From Escherichia coli (lineage in GTDB: Bacteria; Pseudomonadota; Gammaproteobacteria; Enterobacterales; Enterobacteriaceae), in assembly GCF_041248615.1 (NCBI RefSeq), contig NZ_CP158427.1: a stretch of 64,000 nt of DNA; one strand, written 5' to 3'. Each line of letters starts with the position of its first letter. Within the stretch, counting starts at the first letter, position 1. Positions 42,001 to 45,000 of this stretch are shown here, piece by piece. Made by a program: the position numbers.

Positions 42001-45000
42001 TTACCGGATATAACTCAAATTCTGCCGGTGCCACACTCGGTGTGGGCCTTGCTGCCGGTCTGGTGGGTATGGCTGCAGATGCGATGGTGGAAGATGTGAA
42101 CTATACCATGATCACGGATGTGCAGATTGCAGAGCGTACTAAGGCAACGGTGACAACGGATAATGTTGCCGCCCTGCGTCAGGGCACATCCGGTGCGAAA
42201 ATTCAGACCAGTACTGAAACAGGTAACCAGCATAAATACCAGACCCGTGTGGTCTCAAATGCGAACAAGGTTAACCTGAAATTTGAAGAGGCGAAGCCTG
42301 TTCTCGAAGACCAGCTGGCCAAATCAATCGCAAATATTCTCTGATTATCTTCCGGAGGCTGGCCTGACCGGCCTCCTGACTGACGCCTCGCTTTGCTCGT
42401 TGTCCAACCCCGGAAAGAAATAAAATAAATTTTATTTCTCCCCGGCGTTTCCGAAATAAATATGAAAACACTGAGCGGTTGTGCAAATTCTTTGTGCGAC
42501 CGTGAAGTGTTGCCGGCGAAGCCGGAATTTAACGGTTATTAATCTTTTCATCATTAATAATCAGTCCGACTGACTTTTTTTCTTCGGAATATCATCATGA
42601 GTTTTAACGCAAAGGATATGACCCAGGGCGGTCAGATTGCGTCCATGCGTATCCGCATGTTCAGCCAGATCGCCAATATCATGCTTTACTGCCTGTTTAT
42701 TTTTTTCTGGATACTCGTTGGTCTGGTTTTATGGGTAAAAATAAGCTGGCAGACGTTTGTGAACGGCTGTATTTACTGGTGGTGTACCACGCTGGAAGGC
42801 ATGCGGGATTTAATCAAGTCCCAGCCAGTATATGAGATCCAGTATTACGGCAAAACCTTCCGGATGAACGCGGCTCAGGTACTGCATGATAAATACATGA
42901 TCTGGTGCGGTGAGCAGCTATGGTCTGCATTCGTTCTGGCGTCTGTCGTGGCCCTGGTTATTTGCCTGATCACCTTCTTTGTTGTCTCCTGGATTCTGGG
43001 GCGTCAGGGTAAACAACAGAGCGAAAATGAAGTCACAGGTGGTCGTCAGCTGACAGACAATCCGAAAGACGTTGCCCGGATGCTGAAAAAAGACGGCAAG
43101 GACTCCGATATCCGGATTGGCGACCTGCCGATTATCCGGGATTCCGAAATCCAGAACTTCTGTCTGCACGGAACAGTGTCGACGGGTAAGTCAGAGGTTA
43201 TTCGACGTCTTGCCAACTATGCCCGTAAACGTGGCGACATGGTGGTGATTTATGACCGTTCGTGTGAGTTTGTTAAAAGTTACTATGATCCCTCCATCGA
43301 TAAGATCCTGAATCCGCTGGATGCCCGCTGTGCCGCCTGGGATTTGTGGAAGGAGTGCCTGACACAGCCGGATTTTGATAATGTCGCGAACACGCTGATC
43401 CCGATGGGAACGAAAGAGGACCCGTTCTGGCAGGGATCAGGACGTACCATTTTTGCGGAAGCGGCGTATCTGATGCGTAATGACCCCAACCGCAGCTACA
43501 GCAAACTGGTGGACACACTGCTTTCCATCAAAATCGAAAAACTGCGTACCTTCCTGCGTAATTCACCGGCGGCCAACCTGGTGGAAGAGAAAATTGAGAA
43601 AACGGCGATTTCCATCCGTGCTGTGCTGACCAACTACGTGAAAGCCATCCGTTACCTGCAGGGGATTGAGCATAACGGTGAACCCTTCACCATACGTGAC
43701 TGGATGCGGGGTGTCCGGGAAGATCAGAAAAACGGCTGGCTGTTTATCTCGTCAAATGCCGACACTCATGCCTCCCTGAAGCCGGTGGTTTCCATGTGGC
43801 TGTCCATTGCCATTCGTGGGCTGCTGGCAATGGGAGAAAACCGTAACCGTCGTGTGTGGTTTTTCTGTGATGAGTTACCCACGTTACACAAACTGCCGGA
43901 CCTGGTGGAGATCCTGCCGGAAGCCCGTAAGTTCGGAGGCTGTTATGTGTTTGGTATCCAGTCCTATGCCCAGCTGGAAGATATCTACGGTGAGAAAGCG
44001 GCGGCCACGCTGTTTGATGTGCTGAATACCCGTGCCTTTTTCCGCTCCCCGAGCCATCAGATTGCAGAGTTCGCGGCCGGTGAGATTGGTGAGAAAGAGC
44101 ACCTGAAAGCCAGTCTGCAGTATTCCTACGGTGCTGATCCCGTGCGTGACGGGATATCAACCGGTAAGGAGATGGAGCGCCAGACGCTGGTCAGTTATTC
44201 CGACATTCAGTCTCTGCCGGATCTGACCTGTTATGTCACTCTGCCCGGACCGTATCCGGCAGTAAAACTCTCACTGAAATATCAGGCACGTCCGAAGGTT
44301 GCCCCTGAGTTTATTCCGCGTGACATCAACCCGGAAATGGAGAACCGTCTGAGTGCCGTACTTGCCGCAAGGGAAGCAGAAGGTCGTCAGATGGCCAGCC
44401 TCTTCGAACCGGATGTGCCGGAAGTTGTTTCCGGAGAAGACGTGACTCAGGCTGAACAGCCGCAACAGCCGCAACAGCCGCAACAGCCGCAACAGCCGCA
44501 ACAGCCGCAACAGCCGGTGTCTCCTGCCATCAACGATAAGAAGTCAGATTCAGGTGTGAATATTCCGGCAGGGGGGATCGAGCAGGAGCTGAAAATGAAA
44601 CCGGAAGAAGAGATGGAACAGCAACTGCCACCCGGGATCAGTGAATCCGGTGAAGTGGTGGATATGGCCGCTTATGAGGCATGGCAACAGGAAAATCATC
44701 CGGACATCCAGCAGCAGATGCAGCGTCGTGAAGAGGTGAACATTAATGTGCACCGGGAGCGTGGGGAGGATGTTGAGCCGGGAGATGATTTCTGATGATG
44801 AGTATCGCGCAGGTCAGATCGGCCGGAAGTGCCGGTAACTATTACACCGACAAGGATAATTACTATGTACTGGGCAGCATGGGAGAACGCTGGGCCGGCA
44901 AGGGGGCTGAACAGCTTGGGCTGCAGGGCAGCGTCGATAAGGATGTTTTTACCCGTCTTCTGGAGGGAAGGCTGCCGGACGGAGCGGATCTAAGCCGCAT

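Follow-up and report, generated by a model that had tools for sequence, protein, structure and literature searches.

The window, by which we mean the whole 64-kb stretch of Escherichia coli DNA analysed here, shows the gene order traT-traD-traI of an F-like transfer operon (Table 1). The open reading frame of traD scores above the cut-offs of two NCBIfam families. More precisely, PRK13700 gives 1678 bits over residues 1-732 (cut-off 1221), and TIGR02759 gives 833 bits (cut-off 521). The frame contains the Pfam domains TraD_N, TrwB_AAD_bind and TraG-D_C. Likewise, a Walker A motif (GxxxxGK[ST]) is present as GTVSTGKS at residues 192-199. Its residues G192, G197, K198 and S199 are invariant in an alignment of 40 TraD sequences. 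The family scores, the Walker A motif, the gene order and the acidic tail described below all correspond to an F-type TraD. In the best-matching record, the annotation reads traG-(traS)-traT-traD-traI-traX-finO.

Table 1. Coordinates of the features at the traD locus of the window.
Feature	Position	Strand	Details
traD, F-type type IV coupling protein	42597..44795	+	732 aa plus stop
Predicted unstructured coding stretch, TraD residues 602-677	44400..44627	+	AlphaFold2 pLDDT 22-41, no secondary structure
Perfect 9-nt tandem repeat	44457..44516	+	6 x CAGCCGCAA then CAGCCG; codes QP(QQP)6, TraD residues 621-640
Last 38 traD codons, residues 695-732, TraM-binding tail according to the R1 and F literature	44679..44792	+	Position from the sequence; function from the literature in PMC7555446
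traI, relaxase/helicase	44795..50065	+	1756 aa; start shares one base with the traD stop

The traD gene of the window is identical, at 2199/2199 nucleotides, to that of the complete plasmid R1 record NZ_KY749247.1. The wider window differs from R1. Over 25 kb (30000-54999), the closest match is the E. coli plasmid p14408_1, with 99.7% identity. In the record NZ_LT599826.1 (closest plasmid, 99.7%), the match spans 32 kb for the 25-kb query, so about 7 kb of extra sequence lies within the span. In the annotation of this record, traF and trbA flank an ISEc12 (IS21-like) element.

The tract inside traD is the strongest tandem repeat of the whole window. Tandem Repeats Finder locates it at 44455-44516, with a period of 9, 6.9 copies, 100% matches, no indels and a score of 124. 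The two-unit pattern occurs five times in the window, always within the tract, compared with 0.01 occurrences expected from 100 dinucleotide-preserving shuffles. The earlier note had described six CAGCCGCAA units plus a partial one, in frame and coding for 20 residues, and this is what the sequence contains. The repeat reads in the frame of the 732-aa ORF. In the literature, the unit is written as CAACAGCCG, which is a rotation of CAGCCGCAA; both are one and the same repeat. Tandem CAACAGCCG units coding for QQP in the C-terminal extension define the traD 9-bp VNTR, or QQP motif, and the window has them.

On the other strand, a 79-aa ORF (44271-44510) was considered as a gene and rejected. It is a mirror reading of the repeat, lies wholly within traD and is without independent support. 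This ORF is almost certainly not a gene.

An AlphaFold2 model was built from the 40-sequence alignment; its mean pLDDT is 64, a moderate confidence for the protein as a whole. Confidence is reasonable in the transmembrane and ATPase parts, and a helix is predicted at residues 579-603. The tract sits in the middle of the coil that extends from 602 to 677. Helices at 690-713 follow this coil, and the tail has low confidence. With a pLDDT below 50 and a coil along its length, the stretch around the tract is predicted to be an intrinsically disordered linker. A sequence search of the PDB gave TrwB as the only match. It covers residues 161-573, with nothing beyond 573 among matches of at least 20 residues, a minimum that the TraD peptide of the TraM-TraD tail complex 3D8A (cited in PMC7555446) may not reach.

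From the literature, as PMC7555446 summarises it, TraM binds the extreme C-terminus of TraD, over 8 terminal residues in F and 38 in R1. PMC7555446 also describes this tail as acidic, containing Gly and ending in an aromatic residue. The end of the window TraD presents these three features. The earlier note placed the tract near the C-terminus. It does lie in the C-terminal extension, but 92 residues follow, and the tract falls outside the terminal tail that contacts TraM. By sequence and predicted fold, the repeat forms a spacer that precedes the TraM contact site, at that distance from the end. This TraM-binding end is nearly identical across alleles of 1.67 to 23.67 units. At residue 621, TraD proteins keep the seed QPQQP as far down as about 75% identity; those of Salmonella and Atlantibacter are examples. 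In the same protein search, the seed was absent from the 766-aa Klebsiella-type TraD (about 70% identity). This search collapses repeat variants into 90% clusters; it shows the conservation of the seed and has no use for allele counts.

To compare copy number among relatives, we used BLAST with a query of 460 nt centred on the tract, and the change in length was taken as the match span minus 460. The query matched 3,975 PLSDB plasmids. It also matched plasmids or chromosomes in 2,799 of the 5,426 complete E. coli genomes. We took two evenly spaced (stratified) samples, with 58 and 59 full-length matches. In all of them (117/117), the length difference from the window was a multiple of 9 nt, from -54 to +207. 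The tract length of the window is the median in each of the two samples, which overlap in content, include epidemic plasmid lineages, are not independent draws and show a range, not allele frequencies. The word "expanded", used for this tract in the earlier note, therefore holds relative to F only; the window has the exact R1 allele and a median length.

The counts inferred from BLAST spans were checked on the tracts of 19 relatives, which we read directly. All length differences lay in the tract, with a single exception: the left flank of the CCA-type allele has an indel of 9 nt. This flank is 9 nt shorter, so the span-derived counts are one unit too low for that lineage. The tracts read had 1.67, 3.67, 5.67, 6.67, 8.67, 9.67, 10.67, 15.67, 16.67, 17.67, 19.67, 23.67, 25.67 and 30.67 units. 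The F plasmid (L013) has 1.67 units, which code for QPQQP, and R1 shares 6.67 units with the window. Likewise, pChi7122-2 has 5.67 units and the H10407 plasmid p666 has 17.67. The longest array, with 30.67 units, codes for 92 Q/P residues and extends the tract up to 276 nt. The comparison across F-like traD alleles proposed in the earlier note consequently gives repeat counts that are far from identical. Arrays of up to 30.67 units occur in plasmids that are typed as conjugative, a MOB-suite label that reflects gene content and not transfer assays.

The apparent variation might instead be produced by mis-assembly, or by errors of polishing, in a tract of low complexity. The longest tracts exceed short reads, many records are based on Nanopore data, and a homopolymer frameshift lies close to the repeat in one record (L011). 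Nevertheless, all the sampled differences are exact multiples of 9 and the arrays are internally perfect. The older reference records F, R1, pChi7122-2 and H10407 p666 also differ from each other, and these were presumably Sanger-sequenced. Moreover, several independent papers report the variation (PMC7311658, PMC6052338, PMC10237293). An artefact of assembly is very unlikely.

In the record with the homopolymer change (L011; NZ_CP095656.1, an NDM-5 plasmid), traD is unannotated. The reason is a homopolymer shortly after the repeat, which has five G in place of six and so shifts the frame. This homopolymer corresponds to positions 44571-44576 of the window, and the repeat is not the cause of the frameshift. 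The missing G may be an error of sequencing, or traD may be a true pseudogene in this plasmid.

Phase variation was also considered. The tract resembles the contingency loci of Neisseria and Haemophilus, which are hypermutable tandem repeats in coding sequence that change by slippage. However, frameshifts turn the expression of those loci on and off, whereas the changes in the tract are in frame and alter only the length of the protein. With a unit of 9 nt and the sampled alleles all differing by multiples of 9, phase variation was rejected. Every tract read keeps the frame, in contrast to a phase-variable contingency locus, where expression switches as repeat changes alter the frame or the spacing of the promoter.

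Copy number differs even between closely related plasmids. Alleles with 100% identical 400-nt flanks have from 3.67 to 13.67 units, and one at 99.8% flank identity has 15.67. The best 60 matches, all with a flank identity to the window of 99.4% or more, fall into eight length classes, one of them due to a 1-nt frameshift outside the tract.

The same behaviour appears among plasmids derived in the laboratory from the clinical isolate EC0026B. Five such plasmids have 73,423 bp, with one exception at 73,432 bp. The extra 9 bp match one added traD unit (10.67 vs 9.67; L001/L002, NZ_OX460317.1 and NZ_OX460339.1). These assemblies combine Nanopore data with polishing by 101-bp Illumina reads, a read length close to that of the tract itself, so the one-unit change among the siblings is no more than suggestive. 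The source paper of EC0026B does not mention the 9-bp traD difference. Among the siblings, 14 substitutions in the chromosome and an in-frame insertion of 78 bp in deaD are reported only for EC0026B_R1, the one with the extra unit. These changes suggest a mutator background.

Previous works reported comparable differences. Wang et al. (2018, PMC6052338) tabulated 9-11 repeats of the 9-bp traD unit CAACAGCCG in F33:A-:B- plasmids that are 3-8 SNPs apart. In clonal plasmids of Salmonella Enteritidis, the copies go from 2 to 14 (Nadin-Davis et al. 2020, PMC7311658). A hospital survey of 2023 described two plasmids separated by one SNP and one traD unit (PMC10237293). The IncFII traD repeat of these three papers has the same unit, locus and copy-number behaviour as the tract of the window, and we found no substantive difference. 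The view that repeat number is a rapidly changing length polymorphism, put forward in the earlier note, is supported by the alleles with identical flanks, by the laboratory siblings one unit apart and by these papers.

The protein side of the repeat is also known. Lang et al. (2011, Mol Microbiol, PMC3245843) described the QQP motif as a variable region of the unstructured TraD C-terminal extension in F-like plasmids, in agreement with the earlier note. The motif described for R1 is in the same gene and position as in the window, whose traD is that of the complete R1 record. The paper gives five Q/P residues for F and 23 for TraD_R1 (AAT85682), equivalent to 7.67 units, compared with 20 residues (6.67 units) in KY749247 and in the window. 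Either R1 stocks are one unit apart or the two counts of residues were made in different ways. Both the polymorphism and its likely origin had already been published, and the window carries the known R1 allele. To this, our analysis contributes an extended range of counts (1.67-30.67 units), a second type of unit (CAGCCACAA) and hybrid arrays.

Two types of unit were found in the tracts of the 19 relatives. The first, CAGCCGCAA (CCG-type), comes with R1-like flanks. The second, CAGCCACAA (CCA-type), comes with a second type of flank. The arrays are internally perfect, composed wholly of CAGCCGCAA or wholly of CAGCCACAA, apart from two hybrids. This purity extends up to 30 units, which implies that whole units turn over faster than point mutations arise. 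In the first hybrid, at 292-504 of L004 (LR890662.1), 18 CAGCCACAA units are followed by 5.67 CAGCCGCAA units. In the second, at 292-441 of L019 (NZ_CP069991.1), 15 CAGCCACAA units are followed by 1.67 CAGCCGCAA units. Each hybrid has one switch of unit type, with a CCA-type left flank and a CCG-type right flank. The flanks change type together with the units, which would imply a crossover between two allele types of traD, in or beside the array. This pattern in the sequences points to recombination as an addition to slippage in the change of the repeat.

The two types also differ in length among the 19 relatives. The CCA-type arrays (L003, L005, L018 and L020) have 16.67-30.67 units, with one exception of 1.67, and the CCG-type arrays have 1.67-15.67. 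The much longer CCA-type arrays could reflect a shared lineage history, or a different regime of slippage or selection.

We consider the tract to be the known VNTR of F-like traD, changed, with good probability, mainly by slippage with a contribution of recombination. The length of an unstructured spacer would be nearly neutral under a high mutation rate. The proposed mechanism is as follows. A run of identical 9-nt units would gain and lose whole units, principally by replication slippage. Unequal or inter-allelic recombination would contribute. With a unit of three codons, no gain or loss can disrupt the reading frame. Each unit would add Gln-Gln-Pro to the predicted unstructured spacer of the C-terminal extension. 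This spacer would connect the ATPase body, with its helix at 579-603, to conserved helices at 690-713, after which comes the acidic TraM-binding tail. It seems to tolerate almost any length, and the variation would come mostly from the high mutation rate rather than from adaptive tuning. Near-neutrality is favoured because the distribution is broad, F works at the minimum count and near-identical plasmids differ. Nevertheless, the segment is not freely dispensable, given the conservation of the QPQQP seed down to about 75% identity. Likewise, the greater length of the CCA-type arrays could mean selection as well as shared history.

Selection on the count is the principal alternative, in line with the suggestion of the earlier note that repeat number may tune the TraD-TraM interaction. 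The number of QQP units might set the reach or the stiffness of the tether to the TraM-binding tail, and thereby the efficiency of relaxosome docking and of transfer. The tract is indeed in the tether between the ATPase body and this tail, and its seed at residue 621 is conserved across genera. A polyproline-II conformation has a rise of 0.31 nm per residue. If the tract is polyproline-II-like, going from 5 to 92 residues would change its contour length from roughly 1.6 to 28 nm. In addition, PMC3245843 cites reports (Sastre 1998, Lu 2008) that the C-terminal extension plays a part in both specificity and efficiency. On the other hand, counts are spread broadly and evenly between 1.67 and 30.67 units, and no clear optimum stands out. 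F is efficient in transfer at the lowest count. The counts also differ in near-identical plasmids of one outbreak or one laboratory lineage, in a manner similar to drift. We found no experiment varying the traD repeat number in the searchable literature. Compared with the nearly neutral spacer, such tuning is rather unlikely. A broader proposal is that the tether length is an evolvable adjustment that trades off transfer, mobilisation of other plasmids or susceptibility to RNA phages, with the two unit types, whose usual array lengths are far apart, representing different selected optima. We regard it as somewhat less probable still.

Phages offer another possible source of diversification in the TraD C-terminal extension and its QQP length. 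F and R1 differ in their requirements for R17 infection, and Lang et al. (2011, PMC3245843) pointed to the C-terminal extensions and the QQP length, proposing resistance to phages as the driver. However, these authors present it as a possibility "under investigation", and we found no follow-up in the searchable literature. There are many further differences between F and R1, in sequence and in the relaxosome proteins, and the sequence data are silent on phages. Diversification driven by phages seems improbable, and we maintain the nearly neutral spacer as the preferred reading.

A spacer of this composition has a counterpart in E. coli. The linker of FtsK is long, of low complexity, rich in P and Q and presumably unstructured, and its length probably counts for more than its sequence. 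As in TraD, the spacer is P/Q-rich and belongs to a hexameric ATPase that translocates DNA; both proteins fall into the broad FtsK/TrwB-like class. In contrast, the FtsK linker joins a membrane domain to the motor, whereas the TraD tract joins the motor to a partner-binding tail. The FtsK linker is also not a pure tandem repeat at the DNA level.

IncF resistance plasmids that are otherwise identical can be told apart by this fast-changing repeat, and plasmid comparisons in the literature already use it as such a marker. Differences in the annotated length of traD commonly stem from it. If copy number altered transfer or sensitivity to phages, the repeat would give epidemic plasmids a simple and heritable adjustment of conjugation.

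A second repeat of this kind is known from the same plasmid backbones. Wang et al. (2018, PMC6052338) listed a 6-bp repeat (GCTACT) of the yddA gene as varying together with the traD repeat in IncFII backbones. Both are perfect short tandem repeats. The yddA repeat differs from the traD tract in its gene, located in the leading region, and in its unit of 6 nt. In the window, a perfect 6-nt tandem repeat is present at 7139-7167. It consists of 4.8 copies of CTGCTA, a rotation of the yddA unit, and an ORF on the positive strand (7111-7359) reads it as alternating Ala-Thr.
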